From: a virus | DNA length: 64,000 nucleotides | Reading direction: 5' to 3' (one strand) | IMG/VR virus record: IMGVR_UViG_3300045988_052707 | Span: 15,837-79,836 of that record | Shown: piece by piece, positions 10,948-62,358 of the stretch | Layout: the number at the start of each line of letters is the position of its first letter | Numbering within the stretch: the stretch's first letter is position 1 | Notes under the pieces: model-generated | Database searches by the model: none | What the model saw: the letters and a program-made list of their open reading frames with translations, nothing else | What the model was told of the DNA's origin: nothing | Translations under genes and position numbers: made by a program

Positions 10948-10957
10948 CCCCCCCCCC
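10948..10957. repeat. C10 homopolymer tract in a 270-nt intergenic region upstream of gene starting at 10737
   Basis: Read directly: gcctacaCCCCCCCCCCagtg. Confidence 0.9.
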
Positions 10958-11010
10958 AGTGATATTCTGGCTGGAATGTCTATTCCATAACCTATCACCA
11001 TACATAAGAA

Positions 11011-11379
11011 CTATTCAAAGTAGTCTGGGAACTTATCTTTTAATATTTCAGATATGTCCACGCCAGTCAGTTCAGCCATAGATAATTCTTCCAACATTGC
11101 GTCTTCAGAATCGTCCACACTACCGTCAGCGCTATCAATAAGATTGAGCAGTAATTGAGCTTTCTCATCAGTCAGCCCGTCTTGCGCCCATTTACTTACT
11201 ACTTCTGCAAAGAATTCATCGAACTCATAAGAAGTTTGCTCATCTTCATCAGCGATTGCATTCTTCTTGGCAAACAGTTCTTTGATGTCTTCATCTGTAA
11301 TAGTTCCGGCTTTATCATAAGCCGCGTTCAATGACTCTATAAGAGAGTCTTGTTCATCGAATGTCATTGTTGTTAACAA
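11011..11379 (-). CDS. highly acidic protein (D/E-rich), unknown function
   Basis: 122-aa ORF, strongly acidic composition. Confidence 0.5.
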   Translation of the reverse strand: MLTTMTFDEQDSLIESLNAAYDKAGTITDEDIKELFAKKNAIADEDEQTSYEFDEFFAEVVSKWAQDGLTDEKAQLLLNLIDSADGSVDDSEDAMLEELSMAELTGVDISEILKDKFPDYFE

Positions 11380-11532
11380 TTAATGTTAAGAACATGTGAA
11401 TAGTCTATTCACACCAACCCTCAAGGGCTTAAGATAATGTATGGTAATCAAATCACCATTACAGCAGTGGGGACTGCTTAAACAGGCATTTCACTCTCAA
11501 TTATGCCTGTGGTTATGTTAGAATAAAGAAAT

Positions 11533-11895
11533 TCACTTCTTCCAGGATATGAATAGATATTCTCCAACTAAGCCAGGATATCCTTCTTTATCAATAACCT
11601 TAACGAAGAATCGTTTATCTTCGTAGTATTTAAGGATTTCATCCTTGGCTTTAGCTACATCATCATTCAAATCCATAACAAGACTAAAGTAATTGTTCTC
11701 ACTCTTAGCCTTAATAAGTTGGTCAGTAGTATCTAGAAACCTCTTAATTAGAGTTTCTTGTGTCACCACTTCATTGTAAGTGGCAACTGAATATGCCTCG
11801 TCCGCATTCATAGATTCACCTTCCAACAATTTACCAAAATTAAAGATATTCTTCATAATAACTAATAATTGGTTTGTGGTCCAGACGAGATTCAA
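11533..11895 (-). CDS. hypothetical protein
   Basis: 120-aa ORF. Confidence 0.5.
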   Translation of the reverse strand: MNLVWTTNQLLVIMKNIFNFGKLLEGESMNADEAYSVATYNEVVTQETLIKRFLDTTDQLIKAKSENNYFSLVMDLNDDVAKAKDEILKYYEDKRFFVKVIDKEGYPGLVGEYLFISWKK

Positions 11896-11948
11896 ACTCG
11901 TGACCTTCCCTTTAGGAGAGGGACGCTCTATTCTACTGAGCTACTAGA
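11875..11948 (-). tRNA. tRNA-Arg (anticodon CCT)
   Basis: Manual fold: acceptor GGTCTAG/CTGGACC, D-arm GCTC/GAGC, anticodon arm TCCCT-CTCCTAA-AGGGA, T-arm ACGAG-TTTGAAT-CTCGT. Confidence 0.6.
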
Positions 11949-11958
11949 CCCCTTTACG

Positions 11959-12291
11959 TTATACGTTAATACTCCCAGTATGTCTGCCTTGTACATTACC
12001 ACCAACCTCAATACTGTTAGCTTCTATAGAACCTCCCACATTGCCTTTAACTTTAACACTATTACCATGTACAGTAAATGCGTCTCCGTCAATATCACAT
12101 GTGTTGCAGTTAAGCTCTTTTACATTACCAGTAAAACTGATGTGTACACTATCCTTATTAGTTTCAGATATTAACTTACCATTTACGTAAATTTTACGCT
12201 TGATTTGTGAGATAGTGATATTGTCCTCTTCAATGTCATAGGACTCATTATCAATAAATAACTTATTCATGATTCTTTTTATCCAGTTCAT
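11959..12291 (-). CDS. bactofilin-like beta-helical repeat protein
   Basis: Repeated G-N-V/G-G-S-I motifs (VHGNSVKVKGNVGGSIEANSIEVGGNVQG). Confidence 0.4.
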   Translation of the reverse strand: MNWIKRIMNKLFIDNESYDIEEDNITISQIKRKIYVNGKLISETNKDSVHISFTGNVKELNCNTCDIDGDAFTVHGNSVKVKGNVGGSIEANSIEVGGNVQGRHTGSINV

Positions 12292-12890
12292 CTTCCTTCG
12301 TAATACTTAATCAGTTTATCAAATGCTTCAATCCTAGCATTGTGACCCTTCTCGTCATCGGGAGTCCACCAAAATGCCTTACCATACCTGTCTTTAGGTG
12401 CACCTAAGAACTCTCTATTGAACTCTGGAAACATAGCAACTACATCACGTTCATCATAGATGTTGATTCCTCTTTCTGTGCCAGCCATAGCATGTTCAAT
12501 GCAGAAACACATTCCCCAGTATTCTGAATGGTCTTCAAACAGCTTCTTAGCTTTTAGTAAGATAGTGTGCTTATTGATTCTTTCTGTGTACCAATGGATG
12601 AGTTTATCGAAGGCTATAAGCCTGTGTTTCTTCTCATCTACGGGCCACCAAAAGACCAGCCTAGCTACTTCTTCTCGTTTGACATTACCTCCTAGAAACT
12701 CTGGGTTAAACTCCGGAATTAATGCCACTAATTCATTATAAGAGGGAGGTATTCCTTCTTTAAACACTCCGTTGAATGCTTGCTTCATATAGTGGCACAT
12801 ACCACCATTCTTATCACTACCTGGCTTTGTATCTTTATCGTACAAGTCTTTAGCAGTCTTTAATCTTTTAATAATTTCTAAGTTAGTCAT
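12288..12890 (-). CDS. protein with internal tandem duplication (two ~45-aa repeats)
   Basis: FNPEFLGGNVKREEVARLVFWWPVDEKKHRLIAFDKLIHWY vs FNREFLGAPKDRYGKAFWWTPDDEKGHNARIEAFDKLIKYY. Confidence 0.55.
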   Translation of the reverse strand: MTNLEIIKRLKTAKDLYDKDTKPGSDKNGGMCHYMKQAFNGVFKEGIPPSYNELVALIPEFNPEFLGGNVKREEVARLVFWWPVDEKKHRLIAFDKLIHWYTERINKHTILLKAKKLFEDHSEYWGMCFCIEHAMAGTERGINIYDERDVVAMFPEFNREFLGAPKDRYGKAFWWTPDDEKGHNARIEAFDKLIKYYEGR

Positions 12891-12910
12891 CTCTTTCCTT
12901 ATTAAGTTAG

Positions 12911-12982
12911 TAGTCCCAGGCAGAGTCGAACTGCCATTTCAGGTTCCGTAGACCAGCGTTCTATCCATTGAACTATGGGACC
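12911..12982 (-). tRNA. tRNA-Arg (anticodon ACG)
   Basis: Acceptor GGTCCCA/TGGGACT, D-arm GTTC/GAAC, anticodon loop CTACGGA (one T-T mismatch in stem), T-arm GGCAG-TTCGACT-CTGCC. Confidence 0.55.
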
Positions 12983-13129
12983 ATACAGGAAGCAATTCCG
13001 ATTTAACGGCCGCCCTTGCCAGTATCACGTACTGGGCTTTTCACGTGGACGGTCTGTCAGCATAACTCACAGTATTACTTACATGCTTCCTTTAAAGTTT
13101 AGCCTCTTCCAGCGCAAGAGCACTTATAG

Positions 13130-13767: not shown

Positions 13768-13769
13768 AA

Positions 13770-14708
13770 TTATAGCATTAAATTGTTAATACGTTTATAT
13801 TCTTCAAACACCTTGTCCTCTGATTCTTCTCCCCACATACTGTGAATGAGAACACCGTAAGCACAAGGCTGGTACACAATAGGGTCTACTGCCTTCTTAG
13901 TGATTGTAACCTCTGGATTGTTTAATTGACCAGGAGGGCAAGCTACAAATAGCTCATTTCTACCTATCTTAACAGCATCAAAGGAAACTATGTTAGGATA
14001 GCTAAAACCCTTTACATTAGCAGGAAGACCAGGATTCTTGTTAACTATACTGGACAGCCTGAGTGTGCCTTCTATATCAGGACCAACAACTATATGATTA
14101 TGTGATTCTATGTATTTCTTCAGATTGTTCAACATAGTTTCGCTGTCATTATATCCATAGTTGATACCTGTAACATAATAATATGCTCCATTAGTACACT
14201 CCAACCCCAAATCAGAGAACATTGGTCCTTCACCATTAAGCTTGCGCTTAACTTTTATGATTTCTCTGATGTTGCGGTCAGGAATTACTCCAGTGTATTG
14301 TTTTAGTAGACCTTTGACAAGTTTATACTTCTTACAAACATCATCAAATTGTTTAGAGCCAACCAGAAGAGTACTCTCTCCGAATACCTCTCTTGCACGC
14401 TTTACGAAATTAAATAGGTTCTTAGCGCGCATGGCATCCAGAGCTATCTGATTATATTCAGATATTTTAGCTTGCAATAACCTAGCATTCTTCGAGTTCT
14501 CTAGTCCAGCGTTAACCAGTGTGTTGTATTCTCTTACTAACGTATCTCTGCCAGGGATATCAACTGGTGTCTTAGAAACAGAACGTAGATATTCCTCCAT
14601 ACATAAAGCAAGAGCCATAGCTATGTTGGACTGAACAGTCACCACTGGCATGTCAACCACTTCTGGAGTTATAACTTCAGAATCATTGCGTTTTAGAAAT
14701 CTAAACAT
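13770..14708 (-). CDS. member A of a three-gene paralog family (C-terminal I-x-S-x-W-G-E-E motif)
   Basis: C-terminus DPIVYQPCAYGVLIHSMWGEESEDKVFEEY aligns with ORFs 16725..17591 and 22326..23177. Confidence 0.6.
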   Translation of the reverse strand: MFRFLKRNDSEVITPEVVDMPVVTVQSNIAMALALCMEEYLRSVSKTPVDIPGRDTLVREYNTLVNAGLENSKNARLLQAKISEYNQIALDAMRAKNLFNFVKRAREVFGESTLLVGSKQFDDVCKKYKLVKGLLKQYTGVIPDRNIREIIKVKRKLNGEGPMFSDLGLECTNGAYYYVTGINYGYNDSETMLNNLKKYIESHNHIVVGPDIEGTLRLSSIVNKNPGLPANVKGFSYPNIVSFDAVKIGRNELFVACPPGQLNNPEVTITKKAVDPIVYQPCAYGVLIHSMWGEESEDKVFEEYKRINNLML

Positions 14709-16720
14709 CAGAAATTGACTTTTAAAGTTCTACTAAATGTTCCGTCCACTTTAACAATAACGGAATTACGCATAGTAGATGAGAATCCTAATCCACTCAA
14801 TTGATGTTCTTGGTAAGGAGTCTTCATCTTATCAGCTAGAACCTCAAATACCTTACGGTGAGGAGTTAGCTCACTGTTAAGATATTCGTTAAAGAATCCA
14901 CGAACAGGCTCCGGATTCTTGCAATCGTCCAACATAAAGAAGTAATGTTTATTGCCAATACCCTGCTCATCCCAATAATTGGGAGACATCATCATCACGT
15001 TCACCTTATGGAACTTGTTAGTATCAATATTCCATATGCCTATTGACGAATTGCTAGTACTGGGTATTAGCTCTCTTATTTGGATGCCTTTAGATTTACT
15101 GTAAGTAATCTCGGCAACCATGACATTCTCTTTATGTTTAACGGGTTTGTCATAGACAAATTGTCGAACTTCTCCGTTATATTCTATTTCCAATGTAAAG
15201 CCTGTGTCAACAGATTCTCTACAACAGAAGTTATTAACATATACGGTGTAATTGCCTTCAAGCATCTTACGTTCGTCAACCCATATGATGTTCTCAACGG
15301 GTTTACGAGTTTTGCCATATCCAGCATTTTCATCCACGTCTAGCTTACCGCCACTTTTACCAGTTCTGTTAGAATAGTAGATTTCGTTGTATGAAGGTTC
15401 AACGACATGCAAATCCAAGTCATCATAGTTAGACCATGCCAACGAACATCTTAAGAACCCTTCAGTCTGACCGCCAGCAGCTCTTACTTTCTCTTTAATA
15501 GAATCAGCTACTCCTCCATTATATGTCCAAGCAAAGTTGTTCGGCCATTTAAATAGATTCTTAGCATCCTTATTAACAGGAGCTGTAAGAGTTACTAAGT
15601 TATTAGACAGTCTACTTTCCATTAACACTTCTATGTTAGTGGCAGTAGGTACTACATTAGCAATGAAATCATCAATGCTAATTTCAGTTAACTTGTCAAA
15701 CTTCTTAGGATTGACTTTAGTGTCTGCGGCTAGTTCTTCGAATATATTTCCAGCCATTACCTTCTTGGCATCACGATTAGCGAATATAACATTGTTAACT
15801 GTTATATCCTCTAAGGCAGCATGTCTACGAGGTAGAGAATCCATAAGACCTAGTTCCTGCACTTTCTTCTGTGCTTCCTCAATCATTCTTTTAGTAACAA
15901 TTGACTTAGGTCTTTGATAGTTCTCTGGAGCCATGATACGTTCGTATGCAGTCACACAATCGTCCAATTCAAGTCCTGATGATATATTTACCAACAATGT
16001 ACCAATTGCCGTATTACGAATGCGTGCACATCCTACACGATTGAAGTTTGCCCAACACCAGTTGTCTTTCTCTTCATCAGGTAATGAATCATAGTGTCTT
16101 TTATGACCCAGGAATACACTTAAGTCATTTTTAAACTGTTCTCCTCTATATAAAGCATTCTGACCTATTAAGTCCAGAACTGTTTCTATAGAATCGACAG
16201 TTAATTCCTCCAGTGCACGTTTGAACACTTCCTTAGTTGTGCGTAAAGTCCCCATTACAGCAGATACGGATTCAGTTCCTGTATACACCAATTGATTTGG
16301 CATATGATAATAGAGATGATTCCAGGTAATTACTTTAGGACCTTGCAAACTGTCAATATAGACATTGTTTCTATCAATTCCTAGTTCATAATCACGAGTG
16401 ATAAAAACATCTACAACTGGTTTTGATTTCACTAATGCATCGAGATTTCTAGCTACAGTAGCATAAGGTTCATCCAACTGTAGGTTCTCCCACATGGTTA
16501 CTACTTTATTGTCTTTAATGGCGACAACTCTACCATAATGTCTGATATAATGTTTACAATTGTTGCAATTATGAGACTGTCTCTCTTCCTCCGGAAAGGA
16601 ATTAAGATAACAATCCCATAATGCATCCTTGTCTACATTAGTCAGAAAGAGCATGTCTGCACCAGCAGCTAGTCGATTAAACTGCGCATGGACTGCTCTT
16701 TTAAACTTGACAAATTCCAT
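14708..16720 (-). CDS. large hypothetical protein (670 aa) with N-terminal Cys/His cluster
   Basis: HNCNNCKHYIRHYG metal-binding-like cluster; start overlaps stop of downstream gene. Confidence 0.6.
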   Translation of the reverse strand: MEFVKFKRAVHAQFNRLAAGADMLFLTNVDKDALWDCYLNSFPEEERQSHNCNNCKHYIRHYGRVVAIKDNKVVTMWENLQLDEPYATVARNLDALVKSKPVVDVFITRDYELGIDRNNVYIDSLQGPKVITWNHLYYHMPNQLVYTGTESVSAVMGTLRTTKEVFKRALEELTVDSIETVLDLIGQNALYRGEQFKNDLSVFLGHKRHYDSLPDEEKDNWCWANFNRVGCARIRNTAIGTLLVNISSGLELDDCVTAYERIMAPENYQRPKSIVTKRMIEEAQKKVQELGLMDSLPRRHAALEDITVNNVIFANRDAKKVMAGNIFEELAADTKVNPKKFDKLTEISIDDFIANVVPTATNIEVLMESRLSNNLVTLTAPVNKDAKNLFKWPNNFAWTYNGGVADSIKEKVRAAGGQTEGFLRCSLAWSNYDDLDLHVVEPSYNEIYYSNRTGKSGGKLDVDENAGYGKTRKPVENIIWVDERKMLEGNYTVYVNNFCCRESVDTGFTLEIEYNGEVRQFVYDKPVKHKENVMVAEITYSKSKGIQIRELIPSTSNSSIGIWNIDTNKFHKVNVMMMSPNYWDEQGIGNKHYFFMLDDCKNPEPVRGFFNEYLNSELTPHRKVFEVLADKMKTPYQEHQLSGLGFSSTMRNSVIVKVDGTFSRTLKVNF

Positions 16721-16724
16721 AATC

Positions 16725-17591: not shown

Positions 17592-17711
17592 AATTACTTT
17601 TGTTTAACTGAACCTGGTCTGGTAGTAGCTCTCTTAAATGAATCAGATTGCTTATCCCACCAAGCCTGTCGGTCTTTAAGACGTTGTACTTTCTTCTTGT
17701 ATTTCATAGGT

Positions 17712-18826: not shown

Positions 18827-18857
18827 CTTATAGGATTAGAATTACAGGGTTCAGGGT

Positions 18858-26149: not shown

Positions 26150-27217
26150 CTAAACTAACTTATCGAATATCATGGGCTGTATCGACATCCATAGATTCGC
26201 TAGCATTTCTTGCTCTGCGTCAGATGCCTCATCCCAATGTGATACGTACAATTTCTCCGTTCGTTCATTCCTATAAGGAACTTTAAATGAACGGTTAATG
26301 CGTACACTGTGTGCGAATAGGTCTTTGTCGAAATCAATAGCCCTAAGCGTCTTCTGGAAATCGTTGAACTTATTATTAGGGTCATCGACATCCCTAACAG
26401 ACATTCCAGAAGGAAATGGGCCATTACCATGCCTTGTTATATAAGGACGAGTTACATAACAAGTTTGGATTTCTTTACGTATACCTGCTTTCCGCAACAG
26501 CTCGTAAGCGTTTTGTGAAGTTGTATTAGACGGAGTACAATAAGGCATTATGCCGAATCTTTGGTCAAGCAATATTCCCTGTGAACCTTCAAACACTAGG
26601 TTATCATAATTCAACAAGCAATCTTCATTAACCGTACCTGTATGTAAGAAATAAGCATGTGCTAACCTACACCAGTTGTCTAGGTCTATCGAAGGATATT
26701 TACTAGACATGTTGTAATAGTTATCCACTATGGCATTTAGTTTCTCACGCAGTATGTAAGGATTCATACAATCTACAACTGTTAAGCTGTATCCTGCCTT
26801 AACTCGGTCCAAACAAGCTTTAAACCCTGTACCTACAGTACCATGTCGTAAGTTCTCTTCGTTATTAACTTGGGAATAGACATCGAAGGGAATTACAACT
26901 TGGCAGTGAGGGTGATACTGAACAATGGGACGAACTCCCATTTTAGCTAAGTCTGCACCCTCTAACATAGAGGTAATTGGGTCTACAGTACAGTATTCGG
27001 ACCAATACGTCGGCACTCCAAGTAAGGTTCCGCTGCCAAAGTTACTAAAGGTGTGCATCATGTCTCCATGCTTTACAGTATGTCCTACTTGATGTCCACC
27101 ACTAAACCTGACTACTAACACAGACTCTCGCTTACCTATGTACTTGTTACATAAGTTGTGAACTGTCTGTCCCTTACCTTCGTCTCCAAAGAATGTTCCT
27201 AATACAATACTAATCAT
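26150..27217 (-). CDS. adenylosuccinate synthetase (PurA) family enzyme, short form; candidate PurZ-like (2-aminoadenine/Z-base pathway) enzyme
   Basis: N-terminal P-loop IVLGTFFGDEGKGQ (PurA GDEGKGK), VVRFSGGHQVGHT (PurA RYQGGHNAGHT), GTVGTGF, FEGSQGILLD...PSNTTS, TRHGNGPFP; only 355 aa and lacks the C-terminal guanine-specificity region of canonical PurA (about 430 aa). Confidence 0.6.
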   Translation of the reverse strand: MISIVLGTFFGDEGKGQTVHNLCNKYIGKRESVLVVRFSGGHQVGHTVKHGDMMHTFSNFGSGTLLGVPTYWSEYCTVDPITSMLEGADLAKMGVRPIVQYHPHCQVVIPFDVYSQVNNEENLRHGTVGTGFKACLDRVKAGYSLTVVDCMNPYILREKLNAIVDNYYNMSSKYPSIDLDNWCRLAHAYFLHTGTVNEDCLLNYDNLVFEGSQGILLDQRFGIMPYCTPSNTTSQNAYELLRKAGIRKEIQTCYVTRPYITRHGNGPFPSGMSVRDVDDPNNKFNDFQKTLRAIDFDKDLFAHSVRINRSFKVPYRNERTEKLYVSHWDEASDAEQEMLANLWMSIQPMIFDKLV

Positions 27218-38695: not shown

Positions 38696-38767
38696 TGCCC
38701 CATGTTGGACTCGAACCAACGCCATACAAGTTTAGAATTTGCTCTTCTACCACTGAAGTAATGGGGC
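38696..38767 (-). tRNA. suppressor-type tRNA, anticodon CTA (would decode amber UAG)
   Basis: Acceptor GCCCCAT/ATGGGGC, D-arm CTTC-AGTGGTA-GAAG, anticodon arm GCAAA-TTCTAAA-CTTGT (U33, A37; one A-C mismatch at loop-closing pair), T-arm GTTGG-TTCGAGT-CCAAC; 4 nt from the preceding CAT tRNA. Confidence 0.55.
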
Positions 38768-42779: not shown

Positions 42780-43160
42780 CTCTTTGTTTAAATTTATTGT
42801 TATGAGAGTCTTTCTTTATTCTAAACAATAAACAAGCGGCATTACGGCAATTGGACATGCGTTAATCCGCTCGCCACTTACAGACCGTAATGCACACTTG
42901 ACCAGGCAGGAAAGAGGTTTGCTTGGTGACCTATCTGCATGCTGATTATATAATGCAGACCGTGTAGATTCTCTCTTACACAATATCTATAGTAGATTTG
43001 CACTACTGTTTTCTGATGCTTAATCAGGCGAACTCTTACTGTTCGAATAGATACAGGTTTCAACTCTTTGATATAGCCTTTTAAGTCATAGACACACTCC
43101 GGAGTATGTCTACTGGTTCTTCAGACCAAGTTTTGCTACCACCATTCGTCAATAGTGGAT

Positions 43161-44650: not shown

Positions 44651-44694
44651 CCTTCATTTTAGTAATTCCAATTAAGCGTTAATAATAGTGGACC

Positions 44695-44725
44695 ATCGCG
44701 GACTCGAACCGCGGTCTTCACAACT
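44695..44725 (-). other. tRNA 3'-fragment (perfect T-arm CGCGG-TTCGAGT-CCGCG + acceptor 3' strand ATGGTCC-A) without detectable 5' half
   Basis: No complementary GGACCAT or D-arm within 400 nt upstream; lies at the 3' end of a ~900-nt ORF-poor, hairpin-rich region. Confidence 0.35.
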
Positions 44726-45334
44726 CTAAATAACAAGATTACGTGTGTCTCTATTTTATTACATCAGCTGTTGAGTTCAGCATGTAGATAGTTTTACTAA
44801 GAAGCTGAGTGTTAATTCACCAATTACGTCTCCTCGTAAGGCTACGACTTAGTTGTTCACAAACTACCAAACTGGGCTTGACCGAACGGTCGCTCCACCA
44901 CTCCATTTACGTTGGAGAACGTCTATTTGTAACCCATAGCTAGGTAGTGGAGATTTCAGCTTACTAACTCTTAGAGTGTTCTGTTAATGACGTTTGTCAA
45001 TCCTCTTCTGTTTCTAGGTCTCTCCAATTAACCCGACTTAATCAATATAAATACTGATAAGCCAGCAGCTTAGGCTGCCATTCTTACTTCAGTGTTTCCA
45101 CTTAAAATTGTGCATCATTATTAAAGAGTTGGTGCCAACTCTACACGTCTTGCTACCCAGTCATCATGAATCAATTCCATGTATGGCCCATAAATGGCAT
45201 GATTATACTCTCATGCCAGGAGTCATTATGAATTTTAAAAATTTAGGGAGCACAAAATCACCAGTATCCTCCTGTGCCACATTGAGTGGCGTACCCATTG
45301 AGGACTTAGTAACTTATGAGCTATTTTGTTCCAT

Positions 45335-52261: not shown

Positions 52262-52263
52262 TA

Positions 52264-53016: not shown

Positions 53017-53286
53017 TTGCCTACCTGGATTACTAAAGACAATATATTTATGACAGGAGAAGAAATTATAGTAACATTTAAAGAGCCTTGGTATAATGAT
53101 TATACCAGACGATTATACACTCAATTATCTGAACAAATGATTAGAGAAGAGATTGAGAGAGTGCGTAAAGAACCAATCATTACTAATACTGCATTTGATA
53201 TAGCAGTAGACAAGGCTTTCTTAGAGTTACTGCATGACAACAAGGATTTAATTAATATTACAGAACGATACAAGAACCATGAGTAA
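53017..53286 (+). CDS. hypothetical protein
   Basis: 89-aa ORF. Confidence 0.5.
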   Translation: MPTWITKDNIFMTGEEIIVTFKEPWYNDYTRRLYTQLSEQMIREEIERVRKEPIITNTAFDIAVDKAFLELLHDNKDLINITERYKNHE

Positions 53287-53925
53287 AATAGCAACAGAAT
53301 TAGAAGCTAAGACTATGGGGGGGGGACTCTCTCGGTAATTGATAATAAGTGCTGTACTAAAGCTAGAGCACTTGAATTAGGATGTCAGATTAAAAGTGGA
53401 TTTAGTTATACTGATAATCAGTTAGTAGAGTTAGAAGGTATAGAGGCAGCTATAACTGCTCCAAATGTAATCCTTCATTATGGTTGGCAGGATATGCCAA
53501 TTAATAATATACAGCAATTTAGAGTACGTTTCTCATTTGTTAATGAGAGTTCAGTGAATGGAGAGCCGTTTAAGTATTCTGATAATACTACTTACTTTAC
53601 AATTACTCCAAGATTAGAGCAGGGAGAACAAACATATACTAAAACTCTGGCAAATCCTCTTAAATATTACTTAGAGAAACTAGCACTTCCTAACCAAGAC
53701 CCATATAATACACCTGTTTGGATACGTTTTGAGGGATATATGATGCTTAGGCAAGTGTCTCAAATTACATTAGCAGTAGATTCTCAATCTGAGAATTGGG
53801 CAGAAGGAGTAACATTCCCTTCATCTGGAAGGTGGGTCAAAATGAATAATTCTGGTAGAGTATTTAGATTTACTGGTGGGGAAATAGACCTAAACATAGA
53901 ACTGTATACAGCGTCAGCGCAATGA
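53279..53925 (+). CDS. hypothetical protein interrupted by a G9 tract (53317-53325): N-terminal MSKIATELEAKTMGGG in one frame, remaining ~200 aa in the -1 frame
   Basis: ATG at 53279 overlaps previous stop (ATGAGTAA); frame of ORF 53494..53925 is open and protein-like back to the G-run (DYGGGTLSVIDNKCCTKARALELGCQIKSGF...) with no start codon; one extra G would fuse the frames. Confidence 0.45.
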
Positions 53926-54119
53926 TTAAAGTAACTGATAATAAAGAAGTAAAGGAAACAGTCCTAGCAGGACTTAAAAGGAATAAAGAGAAGTATGGTA
54001 AGAAGTATTGTCCATGCTCTTTAGTAAGAGATGAAGATACAGTATGTATGTGTAAAGAGTTTAGGGAAATGGAAGAAGGGACTTGCCATTGCCAACTTTA
54101 TGTTAAAACTAAAGACTAA
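53922..54119 (+). CDS. small Cys4 zinc-binding protein
   Basis: CPCSLVRDEDTVCMC...CHCQ. Confidence 0.45.
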   Translation: MIKVTDNKEVKETVLAGLKRNKEKYGKKYCPCSLVRDEDTVCMCKEFREMEEGTCHCQLYVKTKD

Positions 54120-54125
54120 TAATTA

Positions 54126-54284
54126 TGGATGAATTAAAGAACCAATTAGCACAGTATTTATGTAGCCAAATTCATAATGGTACTAAAGATTTGATTGAAT
54201 TAATTGAATCGGAAGACCTTATTAATGAACAGTGGTATAAGAACTGGAAGGAAGAGATGAGAATCTTACTACAGGAGAAGTAAT
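54126..54284 (+). CDS. small hypothetical protein (not in ORF track)
   Basis: MDELKNQLAQYLCSQIHNGTKDLIELIESEDLINEQWYKNWKEEMRILLQEK. Confidence 0.35.
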
Positions 54285-54285
54285 T

Positions 54286-54525
54286 ATGATAATACTTAGT
54301 GGAAATTGTCCTAGGCATCATAATGCCATTATGTTGGAACTTACAGACTTTGACGACAGTAAAATTTCCTATCTAGCTAGAATATCTAGAGGACATCATG
54401 TTGACACTCTATTAGTTCCGAGAGAATATAAAGATACATTTGAATCTACAGAACTACACAAGATGTTGCTACCTAATATTAGCATAGGTGATATACAATT
54501 TGCTAAAATATATTATTATGATTGA
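54286..54525 (+). CDS. hypothetical protein
   Basis: 79-aa ORF. Confidence 0.45.
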   Translation: MIILSGNCPRHHNAIMLELTDFDDSKISYLARISRGHHVDTLLVPREYKDTFESTELHKMLLPNISIGDIQFAKIYYYD

Positions 54526-54748
54526 TGTTAGAAGGACATTAGAGAATTTACATCAGATACTTCCAAACTTATCAATAGAGGACTTATTTAGAGTTCTTGA
54601 TAATATAGTAGAAGTTCCACAATTCAACATAGGACAGACAACTACTATACGTAGAGATGATAGTGGCTGGAGACCATATGATCCAGGTACATTTATATCT
54701 TATGCTAGTAATGGAATAACACTTAGTGATGAAGGAACTTGTAAATAA
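54488..54748 (+). CDS. hypothetical protein
   Basis: 86-aa ORF overlapping previous by 38 nt. Confidence 0.4.
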   Translation: MIYNLLKYIIMIDVRRTLENLHQILPNLSIEDLFRVLDNIVEVPQFNIGQTTTIRRDDSGWRPYDPGTFISYASNGITLSDEGTCK

Positions 54749-54935
54749 CTGGAATGAGAAGCATCCCGAATACGTATTGGTACACGGGATGTATTCTTAT
54801 GTAGACAATGGACAATCTAAGGATATGCACATGCTTACTATCTTTAATAAGGATAATGAATGTGTATGTGAATATAAAGGAGAAGATTTTATTAAATTAT
54901 ATAATACATTAGAAGAAGAATGGGAAGATGCTTAA
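54726..54935 (+). CDS. hypothetical protein
   Basis: 69-aa ORF. Confidence 0.4.
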   Translation: MMKELVNNWNEKHPEYVLVHGMYSYVDNGQSKDMHMLTIFNKDNECVCEYKGEDFIKLYNTLEEEWEDA

Positions 54936-54959
54936 TGTTAATATAATAGTAAGTGAATT

Positions 54960-55245
54960 ATGGAGAATAAATTAAACGTACCAAAGCTGGAATATAAAAC
55001 AGGAGAGCCTATGTGGGTTCATTGGGATAATAGATACGTATTGCGTGGAGGACATATACTAGGAAAATGCCCCAGATGAGAATTTGATAACCACAGTGGG
55101 CTACTTGGCATATATGGACGACAAATCAATAATATTGGGAAGAGGTATTGAGAATCATTGTGATGAGGACGGTACTCGCAGAGTAAAAGATACAATACAC
55201 ATACCAATGAGCTTAGTAGCTAGTTTTGGAAGTTTTGATTGATGA
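54960..55245 (+). CDS. small gene(s) split across two frames (MENKLNVPKLEYKTGEPMWVHWDNRYVLRGGHILGKCPR* then ...MDDKSIILGRGIENHCDEDGTRRVKDTIHIPMSLVASFGSFD*)
   Basis: Two ~40-aa plus-strand ORFs in adjacent frames not reported in ORF track; junction at gaaaatgccccagatga. Confidence 0.3.
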
Positions 55246-55248
55246 ACT

Positions 55249-56103
55249 ATGACAAATGAGGAGTATAATAAATGGCTAATCCTTTACTTTGATATGCAAT
55301 CTATAAACTTACAGTTCAATTGTAATGATATAGCATCATCACTAAAGGCACAAAGAGATAAGATAAAACAATTCTGTATTGACTGTCTAACAGGAGTAAA
55401 ACATCAGGCTGACAGCTTTCTATTTGACACAAATGCTTGCATATTCTCTACTTCTGAAACTAGAGAGCTATTGTTCTCGCATGAAGAATATCTCATTCTT
55501 GAGGCTGATACTACTAAAGTAGTTGACGGAAAGTATCCCTTAGACTACGCTAATGAAATAGTAGAATCTAATTTGGACACTATTATTGACTATATAGTAC
55601 AGTCAGGAACAGAAACATACAATGATAGAACCAGTAGAGGATTTGGGAATAGGTGGAGTCCTTATAATGAGGAGGAACGTAAACAAGTAATTAAACTGTT
55701 TAACTCTGGAACTTGGTATGATACACTTGGGTCCTTAAAGCATTTATATTATGAAAGAACCCCCAAAGGTTTAAGAATGTGTAACCTGACTGGCAAACCC
55801 TTACAAGCCAATGTTCTAGAACATATAGAAGATATTATTTTAAATATAAAAGACCGTTATGAAACATTTGCCGTTGTTCCTAGAGGTAAATCTAAATTAC
55901 AAGTTTATATGACAATTAGCAATGGAACAAATGGGGCTGAAGGATGTATTATTAATTCTATGGAAGATGTTCTAAATGTGCTTAAAAACTTAAGGAAATG
56001 CAAAGGAGTAACTTGGTCACAGCTACTGGAAGTTGGGATAGATAATGCAGATGATTTATATTGGTGGTATGTAACATTCTCAATAGACACAACAGCTATA
56101 TGA
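55249..56103 (+). CDS. hypothetical protein (284 aa)
   Basis: Largest ORF of plus-strand cassette. Confidence 0.55.
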   Translation: MTNEEYNKWLILYFDMQSINLQFNCNDIASSLKAQRDKIKQFCIDCLTGVKHQADSFLFDTNACIFSTSETRELLFSHEEYLILEADTTKVVDGKYPLDYANEIVESNLDTIIDYIVQSGTETYNDRTSRGFGNRWSPYNEEERKQVIKLFNSGTWYDTLGSLKHLYYERTPKGLRMCNLTGKPLQANVLEHIEDIILNIKDRYETFAVVPRGKSKLQVYMTISNGTNGAEGCIINSMEDVLNVLKNLRKCKGVTWSQLLEVGIDNADDLYWWYVTFSIDTTAI

Positions 56104-56345
56104 CTAATGAACAATTAAATCAATACTATAGTAAGGATGCAGATAAGAAGCAGTGTTGGGTAAGTAAAGACCATAACTGTCCATTAAAGGAACAATGTAA
56201 TGGACTTGTTAAGCCAGAATGTAAAGAGCATATAGACAATGAAGACGCCTGCCATGCTATTGATAAGATGATAGAATGGTATTACCAAGTAGAAGAACCT
56301 GAATTTCTAAAGTTCTATAATTGTCACTTAGAGATGATTAAGTAA
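56061..56345 (+). CDS. Cys-rich small protein
   Basis: CWVSKDHNCPLKEQCNGLVKPECKEH...DACH. Confidence 0.45.
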   Translation: MVVCNILNRHNSYMTNEQLNQYYSKDADKKQCWVSKDHNCPLKEQCNGLVKPECKEHIDNEDACHAIDKMIEWYYQVEEPEFLKFYNCHLEMIK

Positions 56346-56365
56346 CTTTACATACTAAATAAAAG

Positions 56366-56391
56366 AAGCAACCCGTTTTACATCTGGGTTG
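56366..56391 (-). terminator. hairpin GCAACCC-N11-GGGTTGC followed by T-rich tract on minus strand (terminator for leftward transcripts)
   Basis: Minus strand reads GCAACCCAGATGTAAAACGGGTTGC then TTCTTTTATTTAG. Confidence 0.5.
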
Positions 56392-56509
56392 CCAGTAGAT
56401 GCTAGGCACAAAGCCTAAGATAGTTTTTTACATCTTCGTCTTGGTGGTCTACGCCAGTGTGCTCTGATGTATTCCCACTTACCGAGACGGAATCTCATTA
56501 TAAACAACA

Positions 56510-56552
56510 AAGCCCGAACTTAGTTTAATTACTAGGCTCGGGCTTTATTATA
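56510..56552 (+). terminator. hairpin AAGCCCGA-N20-TCGGGCTT followed by TTATTAT (terminator for plus-strand cassette)
   Basis: 8-bp GC-rich stem then T-rich run at the convergent gene junction. Confidence 0.5.
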
Positions 56553-56560
56553 TCAACCTG

Positions 56561-57645
56561 TTATGTATTAATTTTAATTACTTGTCTAGAATAGTCAGGC
56601 AAGTCAAGTATTTTATTACTTTGGTCAAATGTAGAAGCTGTATTCTGCAATAGGAGTCTTTTAGTTCCATTCGAACCAATTGCATACCAATTTGAATCTA
56701 CATATATTAAATCAGTAAGAGTATATTCACCTAGTGTAGATGTAGTCCAATTATTACCCCTATCTGTAGACACACTCTTCATATTATTTCCTATAAGCAT
56801 AAATGTATTAGTCCCAGCTTCATTTGCATACAAACCTTTAGTCAAAGCAGTTAGTTGTGGTCTAGTGGTTGCAGCAGTCCATTGAGTTCCAGTTGGGTTA
56901 GTACTAACGTATGTATAATTACTAGTAGTGCTATATACTACACTTTTTGGCGAAGAATGAAACCCTTGTATTACTGCACTTGGTGTAAACATTCCTGGAG
57001 TATAATAAGTAAGAGAATCTGGTACAGATGTAGCCAAGAAGGTATATATTCTAGCTCCTCCCTGATATGATGTCCCAACACAGCAGTAATCATAAGGCCC
57101 AGTTGATATGCTACTGACTGGACCTACAACACTACGCTCCTTTACTGTACCGTCATCATACACTATAATAACATAGTTCTTACCGTCTCCTCCTGCTCCC
57201 TTATAAAATACCCAGCCAGTAGAGAACCTAGCCAAGTAAGCATAACCATAAGCTCTTACAGTATCTTTGTATTTTAATTCCCACTGTTTGGTAGACTGAT
57301 TAACTACATACAATCCTCCAAGTATAGACAATGCTCCAATTGCTTCACCTCCTCCAGCTATGTATATAAAATCCTCATGGCCGTCTATAGCTGGAATTTG
57401 AGCATAGGTACCATCGCCAGCAAAGTATAAACTACCTGTCTCCGCATTAATAAGGAATAAGTCTTTATTTACAACTATATCTTCTTCTTTAACTAGTTGA
57501 TTCGGTTGGTAGTTACTAGATGCAACTATATCACCCCAGAGACCGATTATGGTTTGGTAATGAGGACAATACCCCCCCCCCTTCCCGTAATTATTGACAT
57601 TCCAGTCAATTCATTCAGTTTGTCTTGTGTTACTATTTTACTCAT
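56561..57645 (-). CDS. tail-fibre/receptor-binding-like protein (S/T/G/Y/N-rich) interrupted near its 5' end by a C10 (G10 on coding strand) tract at 57572-57581
   Basis: ATG at 57645 gives MSKIVTQDKLNELTGMSIITGRGGG then stop; downstream frame is open and protein-like for ~100 codons before its first possible start (TTG at 57331); one extra G would restore a continuous ~360-aa ORF. Confidence 0.5.
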
Positions 57646-57860
57646 TATTATATTTAGATTTGATGTTAATCATACAAGACTAATACATCATGTTAAGATT
57701 AATTATCTACTTGCTATATTAATAATAATCTGTATATTTGTGATATGTTTAACCATTAAATTATAAGATTATGCCATTAGTAACAATTCCACTCCGATTA
57801 TTTGGTAAATCTCTCTCTCTAGCCTTAGCTGCTTTCTCTGCCTTACCTGGTATAGAATGA

Positions 57861-60497
57861 TTAGCTGCTGTTCTTGGATTGCCTAGGTCCCCAACCTACG
57901 TTGTTAGGTAGCATATTATTAGGAGTAGCTAAATGCTTAGATTGCCTTTTAAACTCCTTACCAACTACACGTTTAGCCATTTGTTTACTTGCATATCTAC
58001 CTGCCATAGATGCACCTTTACTAAGTAAACTACCTAATCCTGTTGCTAGTGTAGCATAGTCTGTAAAGGTAAGGAATCCATTTAAATTATGCAAACCTTC
58101 TTCATACTTCTTAGCTTGCATATAATCATCATATCCTTTACTAGCTGCTTCATGTGCTTGTTGATGTTGCCAAGGACTTTTAGTATCAGAAGTTACTATA
58201 GGTTGTTCAGATTGACCATATATGTTTATCATGGACTGAATATGTTCAGCAGGAGTAGCCCTTCTAATTCTATTCGGAATATTGGGTCTGTAGTCTCTAA
58301 TTGCATCACGTCTATTAATAGGTTGTGCAGGTTCTTGATATTTAATAATCATACCATTCTCACCTTTAGGAATACCATTATATACTCCAGTAAGTACTTT
58401 AGCATAATTAGTAGCTTCTGCATATCTTCTCTTACCTTTATTAGAACCAGTAAGCTTAGCTACAAACTTATTAATATCATCATTCTCATCAAAGTCATAT
58501 AGTCTCTTTAAGAATTGTATCTTATCTGCTGCATACTCATCCATAGAATTATAAGACCTAAACTTCTGCTTAATAGCTTCACCTTTAGCATTCTTATCAT
58601 TACCAGTTACATAATCACCTTTCCATGAACTACCAGTAGTTAAATTGCCAAAGTTGTACTTACCTTGTGCAGACTTACCCCAACTAGATTCTAATGCGTC
58701 TTGTGCTAATAGCATTCTAATTGCATTATCATTAGTAATACCTGCCTTCTTATAGGCATTAATAAGTTCTGTAGACCATTGCTTTCTGTTAGTATATGGA
58801 CTCTTCCAAGTTGAGTTGGCAGTTTTAGTAACAGGTTTATCGGTAACAGATTTACTAGCTACTGACTTATTAATTACTGGCTCTACTGTAGGATTATTAG
58901 CTACTACATCAGGTTCATTAGTATCTCTTACTGGTACTACTAAAGCCTCTGGTTTATCGTAAGTTGTGTTGTAATTATACTCACTAAATGGATTAATAGG
59001 ATTAGTAATGTCCTTGTAATTTATTGTAGGATTACTTACTGGATTATAACTAACAAATCTCATTCCTGTTTGTCCTTTACGAATACGTTTCTTATATGTT
59101 GGGCGACTTGATTTGATGAACTTCTTACGCATATCCCTTTTACCGTTAATCTCCTCTTGTTTCTTTAACAGAGGGGACTTCTTAAAATCAAATCTTCCAC
59201 CATGTGCCATAGTTACCAATTCCGGATTTCTAACAGACTTACCTTCAATCCATATAGGATTAGATTGCTGTAATATGAAAGGACGACCTACTTTATCCAT
59301 TAATGCAGCTTGTTTAGTAAGCCTAACTTGGTTAGCAGTATTAGGAGAATCATTCCACTTCTTAGCATAGTCAGCAGGATTAAATTTCCACATATCTTGA
59401 GAAGTCTGTCTTAATTTACCTTTGTTCATTTGAAACTTAACCAAGTGTCCAGTAACATCATCAATAGGACCTATATAATCAGTTCCTGGCTGCCTAAAGG
59501 TCATGAACTCTTTATCTCCCATACGCATTACTGGTTCAGCTTCCTTACCAATAATTTTACCAATCGGATTCTTTCCTGCGTATTCTGTAAATTCAGAAGC
59601 TTCTTGAAATTTCAATGGCCTACCAGAGGGTACTACTGCACTCATTTCGTATCTTCTGTTATGAACTCCAGGATAAAGCTGCTCATATCTATCCCCATGA
59701 CTAAATCCTCTCCTTGCTTCATTACGGCTAATAGGTTTGATATTACTAGTAGCTTTATTAAAGAACATTCTTTTAACTACTGGATTCTCGTCAAATATAT
59801 ATTTAGCTAATAGATTCCTACCTTCTAAATTTCCTCCACCTAGTATTGAAGAACCTGTGTAGTCGGCTGGCATTGTTTTTATATCTTGCAAACTTACTGA
59901 TGCATTACCGTTAGTTCTCTTGGCAGCTTTATAAGCAGCCACTTTTAATGGTAATTTCTCTACCTTAGATAGAAATGGAGCAACTCTGTTAGTTGCAGCC
60001 ATTACTAAGTTAGTAGGGGTTCTGGCTTCTTTGTTAAAAACCCAATGGTTCTTGTTAATAGGATTCCAAGCTCCTGGATTAGTATAAACTCCAATTTCGG
60101 ACGGAATGCCAGTTTTATCTTCCAACCAGTTACCCCAGCCCCCAGTAAGCTTATCCACAGTCATATTACCTAAAGCTCCTCCTACAACAGCGGCTGGAGT
60201 TGTTACTAATGCAGCACCAGCTGCTGAAGGAAGTATAGTTCTTTCTATTCCAACTAGAGGATTAGTCTCGTTGGACATGGAAGCTTTGAATCTGGCTTTA
60301 GCTCCTTTAATAGGATGCCAATAGTCTCTATTTCTTTCAGCAGCTGACCTGGTATCATTAGAAGGTTCTCCACCTAAATCTACAATGGAATACTGTTTAG
60401 GTTTAGCTTTAATAGGTTCATGAATTTCTGGCCTAACTACTTTAGTATTATCGGACTCTATGGTGTTTCCTTGTTGTAGTTTAGGTATTACTTTCAT
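57861..60497 (-). CDS. large virion-associated protein (878 aa) with glucosaminidase (GH73/FlgJ-like) peptidoglycan hydrolase domain
   Basis: Region NAIRMLLAQDALESSWGKSAQGKYNFGNLTT matches the AQAALESGWG...NNLFG core of mannosyl-glycoprotein endo-beta-N-acetylglucosaminidase domains. Confidence 0.6.
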   Translation of the reverse strand: MKVIPKLQQGNTIESDNTKVVRPEIHEPIKAKPKQYSIVDLGGEPSNDTRSAAERNRDYWHPIKGAKARFKASMSNETNPLVGIERTILPSAAGAALVTTPAAVVGGALGNMTVDKLTGGWGNWLEDKTGIPSEIGVYTNPGAWNPINKNHWVFNKEARTPTNLVMAATNRVAPFLSKVEKLPLKVAAYKAAKRTNGNASVSLQDIKTMPADYTGSSILGGGNLEGRNLLAKYIFDENPVVKRMFFNKATSNIKPISRNEARRGFSHGDRYEQLYPGVHNRRYEMSAVVPSGRPLKFQEASEFTEYAGKNPIGKIIGKEAEPVMRMGDKEFMTFRQPGTDYIGPIDDVTGHLVKFQMNKGKLRQTSQDMWKFNPADYAKKWNDSPNTANQVRLTKQAALMDKVGRPFILQQSNPIWIEGKSVRNPELVTMAHGGRFDFKKSPLLKKQEEINGKRDMRKKFIKSSRPTYKKRIRKGQTGMRFVSYNPVSNPTINYKDITNPINPFSEYNYNTTYDKPEALVVPVRDTNEPDVVANNPTVEPVINKSVASKSVTDKPVTKTANSTWKSPYTNRKQWSTELINAYKKAGITNDNAIRMLLAQDALESSWGKSAQGKYNFGNLTTGSSWKGDYVTGNDKNAKGEAIKQKFRSYNSMDEYAADKIQFLKRLYDFDENDDINKFVAKLTGSNKGKRRYAEATNYAKVLTGVYNGIPKGENGMIIKYQEPAQPINRRDAIRDYRPNIPNRIRRATPAEHIQSMINIYGQSEQPIVTSDTKSPWQHQQAHEAASKGYDDYMQAKKYEEGLHNLNGFLTFTDYATLATGLGSLLSKGASMAGRYASKQMAKRVVGKEFKRQSKHLATPNNMLPNNVGWGPRQSKNSS

Positions 60498-60739
60498 TAT
60501 TTATTCGATTTATCGTTATTGGTGAATCTCTTCCATATTCCTGTTACTGAATCTATACCAAGCAATCCCATACAACACAACAGGACTGTGTCTATCATTA
60601 ATGGGGCTTGAATTACGTTTATTGCACAGTATATTAACACTCCCAAGCAGACAAACCACCCTACTACTCCGCAGAGTCTCTTAGATGATATGCCAGAGTG
60701 GGATGTGAATACTTGCTTTAAGAATGTTACAAACTTCAT
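60497..60739 (-). CDS. small membrane protein
   Basis: Two TM-like segments (LCGVVGWFVCLGVLIYCAI / MIDTVLLCCMGLLGI); start overlaps stop of upstream gene. Confidence 0.45.
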   Translation of the reverse strand: MKFVTFLKQVFTSHSGISSKRLCGVVGWFVCLGVLIYCAINVIQAPLMIDTVLLCCMGLLGIDSVTGIWKRFTNNDKSNK

Positions 60740-61281
60740 TATATAATTACATTTATAGAAATATTAGCTGTGTTACCTCCTATATATGCCTGATTTATTG
60801 GTATTTCAGTAGTTACCCCAGATTGGCATACTGCGTTATTTGTTACACTATCTGCATCTACAGTCACCCTGTATGTACTGAAATATCCAGTGAACAATAA
60901 TTTAGAGACATTAGTTAAATCAGTTGGTAAATCAAAGTGGAAGTTTCTGTCAAAGAAAGTTGCCCCTTGATAGTCTAGAGTTCCAGACCTAGGAATTGTT
61001 ATAAACCCGTCTGGAACTCCATCTATGTAAACATCTGCTACAAAGTCATAGGATTTAGACGTAAGCCCAGAGTTAGTTATTGAAACATGTATATTGAAGT
61101 TATACTGGAATGTTGACAACTGTATATCCTCTTCCTTAACTAACTGATTATTAGCGTAATTATCGTTAGTTTCAAGTCCGAAGAACTCTACTCTATCTCT
61201 AGTGGCACACTTGGTTGGAGTATTTGTACCTCCACCAGCTAAATTAATTAAATATTGTTCTGTTGCAATTTTATTTGTCAT
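60739..61281 (-). CDS. structural-like protein (tail/fibre module)
   Basis: 180-aa ORF rich in T/N/G/Y, in structural operon. Confidence 0.45.
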   Translation of the reverse strand: MTNKIATEQYLINLAGGGTNTPTKCATRDRVEFFGLETNDNYANNQLVKEEDIQLSTFQYNFNIHVSITNSGLTSKSYDFVADVYIDGVPDGFITIPRSGTLDYQGATFFDRNFHFDLPTDLTNVSKLLFTGYFSTYRVTVDADSVTNNAVCQSGVTTEIPINQAYIGGNTANISINVII

Positions 61282-61293
61282 TTTAAATACTTG

Positions 61294-61785
61294 CTATGTA
61301 TTGTTTATACACATAACGGCAAGTAGACTCTGTACTGGTAAATTCTGATTAGTTCCTATAACAAGTCTATCTGTTTCATAATTAGAATAGTGATTCATAT
61401 TCTTTGCATTATTTAATAGGAATGCTACGTAAATATTACTTCCAATCACACTATTGCCAAACAAAGCTACATTTCTTATAACACCTGCTATAGGGTATAC
61501 CACCATAGATGAAGCAGGAATATCTGGTGTAGCCGATGTGCTTTGACCATACATATCTGTGATTGATATACCCATTGTAGTGTCTGTAGTAGTGTTATTA
61601 AAGAATATTAGGGTGCTGCCGCTTAGTGAACCGTTTAATAAATCTATAGCGTCAGCAATACCCCCCGACGGTAGGTTATCATTGAACTGTTGCTTAGTAA
61701 TGCATCTATTGTTCGCAACTCCGTCTAAGCTCAAGCCTTCTGCTCTGGCTTCAGCTGCTGTTACTAATTCATTAGTGCTTTCCAT
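61294..61785 (-). CDS. structural-like protein
   Basis: 163-aa S/T/N-rich ORF. Confidence 0.45.
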   Translation of the reverse strand: MESTNELVTAAEARAEGLSLDGVANNRCITKQQFNDNLPSGGIADAIDLLNGSLSGSTLIFFNNTTTDTTMGISITDMYGQSTSATPDIPASSMVVYPIAGVIRNVALFGNSVIGSNIYVAFLLNNAKNMNHYSNYETDRLVIGTNQNLPVQSLLAVMCINNT

Positions 61786-61988
61786 TATTCTTGATATTCT
61801 CTTAAATTACCAATTGTTACTTCAAATTCATCTGATTTCATGTAGGGTGATACATCTGCATCTTTAGCAGCTTCGTTCAAACAGAACATGTCTGAAGGAA
61901 ACGATAGTGCCTTTACCCTTATTTGCTTAAGTAGTCTGGAGTGTTTGGCTTTAGACCAAACCCAGACGTCAAATATAAAATTTCTCAT
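61785..61988 (-). CDS. hypothetical small protein
   Basis: 67-aa ORF. Confidence 0.35.
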   Translation of the reverse strand: MRNFIFDVWVWSKAKHSRLLKQIRVKALSFPSDMFCLNEAAKDADVSPYMKSDEFEVTIGNLREYQE

Positions 61989-62019
61989 ACTGCGATTAAT
62001 GTACTTTAATTCTTAAATG

Positions 62020-62358
62020 TTAAGAATTACTAAGTGTAGAAGCAATCCACTTTTGATTGAAGTCTTTGTCAAGGCTAAAGTGCTGTAAACCACCTTGACT
62101 TACATTTACGTATAATGTGAACAAATTAACTATTGGAATTCCGATTATTGTCACACTAATACATGTTGGCGTATTATTAGATACTCCATAATACAGTAAC
62201 TGAAATGGGACCATGTCTGTCATATTAGACTTCACAATCTCCATTACAGCACTATCAGCACTGTTAACCTCTATATTACTACTTCTACCTGGATAAATCA
62301 AATCTTGTGTTGTTAAAACTAGGGTCTGAACCCCCCCCCATAGACTTGAGTGCGTCAT
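62020..62358 (-). CDS. hypothetical protein with G9 tract in its first codons (MTHSSLWGGV...)
   Basis: In-frame as sequenced; an upstream ATG at 62410 (MALIQNDDNKCPTTKQVNDALKSMGGG...) is in the +1 frame and would fuse if the run were one G shorter. Confidence 0.45.
   Translation of the reverse strand: MTHSSLWGGVQTLVLTTQDLIYPGRSSNIEVNSADSAVMEIVKSNMTDMVPFQLLYYGVSNNTPTCISVTIIGIPIVNLFTLYVNVSQGGLQHFSLDKDFNQKWIASTLSNS

Follow-up and report, generated by a model that had tools for sequence, protein, structure and literature searches.

The genome of a human gut phage contains four long runs of guanine, some of which break the reading frame of the gene in which they lie, and the question is whether such genes are misassembled, decaying or switched. 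The runs are found in a 64,000-nucleotide (nt) stretch of DNA (the window; positions 15,837 to 79,836 of the IMG/VR virus record IMGVR_UViG_3300045988_052707) that originates from an uncultured human gut phage, a distant relative of the crAss-like phages. Three of the tracts lie near the 5' ends of genes that we denote A, B and C, and one is non-coding; a fifth site, in gene D, is short in the window and longer in relatives. Among related genomes, the tract lengths vary with the flanks kept, both frame states occur, in-frame proteins are present in public data, and the gene bodies remain open, those of A and B under purifying selection. On these grounds, we consider it about 70% probable that the tracts are contingency loci at which slipped-strand mispairing switches adhesin-like proteins, in agreement with the phase variation proposed in the initial annotation.

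Long G tracts in a family of paralogous genes

Exactly four runs of nine or more G or C residues, the same four that the initial annotation listed, occur in the window, which has a G+C content of 37.4%; the number expected by chance is 0.0 in both order-1 and order-3 Markov simulations. The next-longest G/C run, and the only other one that exceeds 5 nt, is the C6 at 61661-61666, that is, the tract site of gene D (Table 1). All four long tracts have G on the sense strand, including the tract of gene A, which is encoded on the strand opposite to that of the other genes. The tracts are located within the first 13–25 codons in A, B and C and at codons 41–42 in D, in all cases inside or just past a conserved N-terminal module. 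The threshold of instability, about 7–8 G/C, is exceeded in the window by the tracts of A, B and C and by the intergenic tract, and in relatives by the D site, which reaches G11.

Translation from the ATG of gene A (53279), with a G9 tract 38 nt downstream, terminates at a TAA after 19 codons, and a tract of G10 or G7 yields a 215-amino acid (aa) open reading frame (ORF) that ends at 53925. Gene B starts at the ATG at 57645 on the minus strand, 64 nt upstream of a G10 tract that leads to a TAA after 32 codons; with G11 or G8, the ORF extends to 56561 and encodes 361 aa. The copy of gene B in the window carries an additional 1-nt deletion just upstream of the tract, and the relatives are in frame at G10 or G7. 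From the ATG of gene C (62410, minus strand), the G9 tract leads to a stop after 41 codons, and G8 or G11 joins this start to ORF 62020..62358, in which the tract occupies codons 7–10. The initial annotation had placed two of the tracts 35–70 nt past an ATG and had noted that one extra G would restore both genes and that loss of one G could fuse an upstream ATG to ORF 62020..62358, all of which agrees with these measurements (the fused product at G8 comprises 129 aa). Its further statement that there was no alternative start for about 100 codons proved too strong, given that starts in the frame of the gene body are present 56 codons past the tract in A (ATG 53494) and 80 codons past it in B (TTG 57331).

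The window contains about 29 tRNA genes (11876-45838), including one with a CUA anticodon (amber suppressor-type), and it is possible that part of the genome recodes TAG. The idea that such recoding rescues the frames of A, B and C was considered and rejected: past the tract, translation meets a TAA in genes A and B, and a TAG followed by a TAA three codons on in gene C. Because TAA stops are thus present after all three tracts, the suppressor tRNA encoded in the window provides no rescue.

The genes that contain the tracts share with a further gene, E, an N-terminal module (KIATE..EA..GG....NKC(C/P)TK.RA..LG.....Y..NQLV...D(I/L)) that is followed by C-terminal domains unrelated among A to E. 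An exhaustive profile search located this module at residues ~15–65 of 119 protein clusters, most of them 150–350 aa in length, with variable C-termini. The tract lies ahead of the KC.TK motif in A and B and behind it in C and D, and these differing positions within the module point to independent origins of the tracts. In gene E, which has no tract, the Gly-Gly-Gly linker is written GGT GGA GGT (61227-61236); given this spelling and that GGG is the rarest glycine codon (6%), the homopolymer is not a by-product of codon usage.

Sequence searches of PHROGs, Pfam, NCBIfam and PDB gave no useful match for the repaired A, B and C proteins, for D and E, or for the module. Three bona fide members of the N-module family contain a BACON domain, a putative carbohydrate-binding domain typical of Bacteroidota. 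The predicted model of E is an adhesin- or pilin-like beta-sandwich, and the C-terminal part of B is all-beta, with an Asp-box-like STDRGNNW motif; the AlphaFold model of B, built from a shallow alignment, had a predicted local distance difference test (pLDDT) score of 39 and was left out of the fold search. Such adhesin-like folds are generic and suggest, but do not establish, a binding role; the family members are probably virion-surface or host-binding proteins. A role in the tail or in host interaction may be surmised from the predicted adhesin-like fold, the BACON domains in family members and the diversifying substitutions described below.

Tract length variation and its possible causes

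Relatives of the phage were identified with the neighboring 878-aa glucosaminidase-domain protein as the anchor, which yielded 75 IMG/VR loci, and the tracts were compared in about 25 close relatives from independent metagenomes (12–25 genomes per site; consensus assemblies from IMG/VR, GenBank, ENA and Logan). In these close relatives, orthologous tracts range between 6 and 12 G in length, with hardly any change in the 30-nt flanks. The D site, which is G6 in the window, is G9 in MT835470.1, a GenBank sequence that is 96% identical to window positions 58313-64000; an INPHARED nucleotide search gave this sequence as the sole close relative, solely over that interval.

Direct translation placed gene A in frame in 7 of 17 genomes, B in 3 of 12, C in 5 of 25 and D in 13 of 25, with both the in-frame and the out-of-frame state found for each of the four genes. 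At least nine in-frame/out-of-frame combinations of A, B, C and D occur among 17 genomes (as counted from the translation tables), and the tract states do not track relatedness, in that the closest pairs, which diverged by ~1%, differ. Full-length in-frame homologs of B are abundant in independent ENA, Logan and JGI assemblies (P0001-P0120); P0001, with 1289 member sequences, shares 94% identity with the repaired B. The in-frame B proteins read KGGY, KGGGY, KGGGGY, KGGEY or KGRGY across the tract, where two, three or four Gly correspond to 7, 10 or 13 G, and an in-frame 215-aa homolog of A (P0241) agrees with the reconstructed A. Some alleles are interrupted by other bases, namely, A+G9, G9+A and G6AG3 in gene A and G9+T in gene B. 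Interrupted alleles, including those underlying KGGEY and KGRGY, imply real sequence evolution at the tract.

Homopolymers of 9–10 nt are error-prone on several sequencing platforms, so that the true tracts could, in principle, be fixed in frame and their lengths miscalled during sequencing or assembly. However, the corrections required are of opposite sign, +1 for A and B and -1 or +2 for C, and relatives carry tracts of G6, G7 or ones interrupted by substitutions, which eliminates systematic under-calling, suggested in the initial annotation, as the sole cause. Furthermore, lengths of 6–12 G are found across independent IMG/VR, GenBank, ENA and Logan assemblies; clean G6 and base-substituted alleles cannot be miscalls; and gene callers repeatedly found both in-frame and truncated products. 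We find an artefact of this kind hardly credible.

The gene bodies are open in all of the ~79 copies compared, over 199 codons in A, 334–337 in B, 101–105 in C and 121 in D. The mean ratio of nonsynonymous to synonymous polymorphism (pN/pS) is 0.30 in A, 0.37 in B, 0.60 in C and 2.3 in D; by this sequence-based measure, the bodies of A and B are under purifying selection. The intact bodies imply that A, B and C are maintained although they are out of frame in most consensus genomes. In gene D, about a dozen positions show recurrent replacements, with three or four alleles at several of them, and synonymous change is low; the counts are small, and the pattern suggests the diversifying selection that is typical of surface proteins.

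Selection on the bodies bears on the possibility that the tracts are neutral mutational hot spots that expanded by chance in dispensable or decaying genes, with no adaptive switching. In A, B and C, out-of-frame copies indeed outnumber in-frame ones; three genomes (L005, L014 and L024) have lost gene B, and four (L003, L007, L012 and L024) contain orphan 'MSKIVTQ' 5' stubs; and the non-coding tract is equally variable without any frame constraint. Yet no stop or second frameshift was found in the ~79 gene bodies, pN/pS is at 0.30–0.37 in A and B, in-frame B proteins are abundant, and the tracts persist at four positions in a clade that has been purged of A/T runs of 7 nt or longer (665 kb). 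Neutral expansion of this kind is, in our view, quite unlikely.

Several observations weigh against the reading of the tracts as slipped-strand contingency loci. The length differences all come from comparing consensus assemblies of separate samples; the pooled in-frame fraction, 28 of 79 (35%), matches what would be expected if tract lengths drifted at random; and G9 is the most frequent length of each tract, whichever frame results. The last two observations imply that no selection on frame is visible. In addition, gene A belongs to a cluster of small genes encoded on the other strand and not to an obvious tail module.

An in-frame fraction of about one third, as if the frame were irrelevant, and the prevalence of G9 in any frame would also be seen if the frame were corrected at the level of expression, that is, if RNA polymerase stutter on G9–G10 or a ribosomal frameshift on the GGG run provided low constitutive expression, the DNA length being neutral. 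The conservation of bodies that are out of frame in most consensus genomes, the rarity of the GGG codon (6%) and the presence of G on the sense strand of every tract are compatible with such slippage as well. Programmed slippage sites, however, are normally of conserved length whereas the lengths here vary, and the known cases of bacterial transcriptional slippage use A/T runs, with G/C runs slipping less. Furthermore, the interrupted in-frame alleles (KGGEY, KGRGY and G6AG3) would lose slipperiness yet stay in frame, which suggests that the frame in the DNA matters. A programmed slippage or frameshift site was rejected as a candidate because the tract length is not conserved and the out-of-frame products are stubs of 19–41 aa. 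Expression-level slippage thus defined seems to us rather unlikely. Slippage of RNA polymerase or ribosomes may act in addition to the length variation in the DNA.

If the tracts are slipped-strand contingency loci, the poly-G runs would act as hypermutable simple-sequence repeats that gain or lose G by mispairing during phage DNA replication. Each gain or loss of one G would move the variable C-terminal domain of A, B, C or D in or out of frame, such that a phage population would consist of mixed genotypes expressing different subsets of small adhesin-like proteins. In the non-coding tract, which is predicted to form one side of a hairpin, a change in length would affect spacing or structure instead of the frame. 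High-rate switching within populations, replication slippage as its cause and host recognition by the proteins are the three elements of this scheme that we infer.

Table 1 Tracts, genes and other features of the window, with tract lengths in close relatives.
Feature	Coordinates	Strand	Description	Tract length in relatives
Poly-G tract, gene A	53317..53325	+	G9; in frame at G10 or G7	7-10, commonest 9
Poly-G tract, gene B	57572..57581 (C10 as shown)	-	G10; in frame here at G11 or G8	8-10, commonest 9
Poly-G tract, gene C	62331..62339 (C9 as shown)	-	G9; in frame at G8 or G11	7-11 (7, 8, 9, 10, 11 seen), commonest 9
Fifth tract site, gene D	61661..61666	-	G6, part of SGG; relatives G7-G11; in frame at G6 or G9	6-11, commonest 9
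Non-coding poly-G tract	10948..10957 (C10 as shown)	-	G10; 54 nt past the stop of ORF 11011..11379	
Gene A	53279..53925	+	N-module paralog, MSKIATELEAKTM-GGG-TLSVIDNKCCTK...YTDNQLV...; out of frame here; 215 aa if in frame	
Gene B	56561..57645	-	N-module paralog; out of frame here; 361 aa if in frame	
Gene C	62020..62410	-	Short N-module paralog, MALIQNDDNKCPTTKQVNDALKSM-GG-VQTL...; out of frame here; 129 aa at G8	
Gene D	61294..61785	-	N-module paralog, in frame here, 163 aa	
Gene E	60739..61281	-	Constitutive paralog, 180 aa; without homopolymer tract	
Structured intergenic region	10738..11010	-	~270 nt, chain of hairpins, the last a long hairpin with U-run (terminator-like)	
Left inverted-repeat arm	53279..53299	+	Shared 5' end of gene A, ATGAGTAAAATAGCAACAGAA	
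Right inverted-repeat arm	57625..57645	-	Shared 5' end of gene B, ATGAGTAAAATAGTAACACAA	
Glucosaminidase-domain protein	57861..60497	-	878 aa; Pfam PF01832, E 1.1e-08	

The non-coding tract, loss of other homopolymers and known systems

The fourth long tract is intergenic, as first annotated, being located between ORFs 11011..11379 and 10432..10737. In 23 relatives, it consists of 6–12 G, and the effective lengths, tallied by hand with adjacent substituted or inserted bases, are split 8/8/8 over the three frames, which fits a non-coding site. Seven length alleles were found in 20 genomes that are otherwise 90–98% identical, and within the well-aligned ~5.3 kb, this is the sole length site with many alleles, the other indels being few and mostly two-state. 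The surrounding region (10738..11010) folds with z = -8.7 relative to shuffled controls, and in 19 relatives, the changes fall in loops or interconvert GC and GU pairs, including U-to-C changes opposite the G run. Because of the folding energy and the location of these changes, we regard the region as a candidate small RNA or leader, the first hairpin of which would include the G run. A search of Rfam gave nothing credible for it, and RNAalifold analysis of the 19 relatives detected no compensatory double changes, the sequences being too similar.

Only 3 A/T runs of 6 nt or longer were observed in the window, compared to ~47 expected from the dinucleotide content. Across the clade that carries the G tracts, there is no A/T run of 7 nt or longer in 665 kb, and runs of 6 nt or longer number 11 per 100 kb, against 59–152 per 100 kb in more distant relatives, which have almost no long G/C runs. 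In the comparison of loci L001-L099, the A/T purge and the G tracts are found in one and the same clade, to which the purge is specific. That the tracts are kept while A/T runs of 7 nt or longer are purged argues that they are retained and not merely tolerated. It is possible, although we hold this more elaborate scenario to be doubtful, that replication in these phages is prone to slippage, that, under this pressure, nearly all other homopolymers were removed and that at least five G tracts were kept as a combinatorial switch. Four of these would provide up to 16 virion-adhesin combinations tracking the phase-variable capsules of Bacteroidota, the fifth would tune a structured regulatory RNA, and a recombining or invertible A-B cassette would add a second layer of variation.

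A group of distant relatives (L056, L059-L061, L063 and L064) has tracts of C9-C12 at ~16.0-18.2 kb of each locus; these are non-coding, differ in length and adjoin a conserved ATTAT(A/T)TTTAAGTACC motif.

The terminase encoded beside the locus in L002 is ~30% identical to those of crAss-like phages, Bacteroides phage crAss001-type isolates, Flavobacterium phages and an Azobacteroides phage, and inspection of the sequences ahead of the A, B and C start codons revealed no Shine-Dalgarno motif. These relatives of the terminase (TerL), together with the lack of a Shine-Dalgarno motif upstream of the three genes, make a Bacteroidota host likely.

Poly-G/C contingency loci are known in Campylobacter jejuni, Haemophilus and Neisseria, with tract lengths of ~7–12 and 9 the commonest. 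The loci described here resemble them in the type of tract, the length range, the frame-shift logic, the position early in surface-related genes and the occasional tract in a promoter or leader. The differences are that the tracts here are virus-borne and replicated by phage or host machinery, and that the rest of the genome in the close clade has been purged of A/T homopolymers.

Phages with comparable tracts have been reported. In Fletchervirus phages, which infect Campylobacter, tracts of 7–11 G are present in genes for receptor-binding proteins (Sorensen et al. 2021, as described in PMC12633550 and PMC12823448). In both cases, G runs on the coding strand lie near the 5' end of several genes, and their length shifts the frame so that subpopulations would carry different surface proteins, which, for the phage analyzed here, is gathered from genome comparison; by analogy, the likely Bacteroidota hosts have phase-variable surface polysaccharides. 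The phage analyzed here nevertheless belongs to an unrelated lineage, with a TerL ~30% identical to those of crAss-like phages, and its proteins are unrelated to those of Fletchervirus, forming a five-member paralog family with a common N-terminal module, to which an extra non-coding tract is added. A to E match no PHROG or Pfam family and hence share no PHROG family with the Fletchervirus receptor-binding proteins, and the TerL matches listed are to crAss-like or uncultured phages, not to Campylobacter phages. The likeness, drawn by analogy, is one of mechanism, not of ancestry.

In T-even and other coliphages, homopolymer slippage gives rise to reversible frameshift variants, a form of bet-hedging (Gomez, Barrick & Waters 2025, preprint, PMC12633550). 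That study looked for homopolymers of at least 6 bp across genes of all functional classes, whereas the long G runs analyzed here are concentrated in one protein family of a genome that otherwise avoids homopolymers. Full-text searches of a literature collection retrieved no paper in which poly-G or homopolymeric tracts, slipped-strand mispairing or contingency loci are connected with crAss-like phages or Crassvirales. Poly-G switching is established for Campylobacter phages and, in the 2025 preprint, for T-even phages, and the present case is another instance, in a crAss-related phage.

Viruses of the crAss-like group and their relatives rank with the most abundant ones in the human gut, where they persist beside hosts with phase-variable capsules; if our reading is correct, the frame-switching adhesin-like family would be the phage's own system of stochastic variation. 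For genome annotation, the consequence is that genes of the A-D type will be called fragments or pseudogenes in most assemblies, so that annotation needs to take the tracts into account. That this clade in particular has lost its A/T homopolymers beside the kept G tracts hints at unusual replication fidelity.

The A-B segment and other features of the window

Genes A and B lie at the ends of a 4.4-kb segment (53278-57649) bounded by inverted 21-nt copies of ATGAGTAAAATAG(C/T)AACA. The segment is inverted in L006, L026 and L100-L102, the last three representing the abundant P0001 lineage, and the inversion exchanges the surroundings upstream of these two genes; in L009 and L034, B alone is flipped. 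The arrangement is reminiscent of the G segment of phage Mu, the C segment of P1 and diversity-generating retroelements, which likewise provide alternative host-binding proteins, and the A-B segment, too, is found in both orientations with inverted 5' ends flanking it. It differs from these systems in that inversion is seen between genomes only, and switching would proceed by frame, not by exchange of the C-terminus or mutagenic retrohoming. A Gin/Cin/Hin-type invertible tail-fibre segment was considered and rejected: the inverted repeats and both orientations are present, but the proteins encoded in the segment contain no recombinase domain. The segment and its immediate surroundings yielded no invertase or reverse transcriptase. 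We therefore interpret the A-B inversion as a rearrangement that arose during evolution and not as a proven programmed switch.

Inside the segment, a 65-aa Cys-rich protein (53922-54119, plus strand) matches the ferredoxin-thioredoxin reductase catalytic beta chain family (PF02943, E 1.5e-13). In the P0001 lineage, the 878-aa neighbor of the family is replaced by a 1085-aa product (L100, 14639-17896) with a weak match to the SLT (lytic transglycosylase) family, which suggests a possible domain swap in this probable cell-wall-degrading protein.

Elsewhere, the window codes for helicases and contains a transfer-messenger RNA (tmRNA) and a RAGATH-34 RNA (coordinates listed for the CUA tRNA and these two RNAs: 38695-38767, 44686-45189 and 43050-43158). 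A 355-aa protein (26150-27217, minus strand) matches phrog_1211, '2-aminooxy adenylosuccinate synthetase' (E 2e-46), which we take to correspond to PurZ-like enzymes, a hint that 2-aminoadenine might replace adenine in the phage DNA. A 670-aa protein (14708-16720, minus strand) aligns with phrog_1735 along its entire length (E 4e-262) and shares ~46–47% identity with proteins from phages of Bacillus, Serratia, Salmonella and Klebsiella with genomes of ~130–160 kb.

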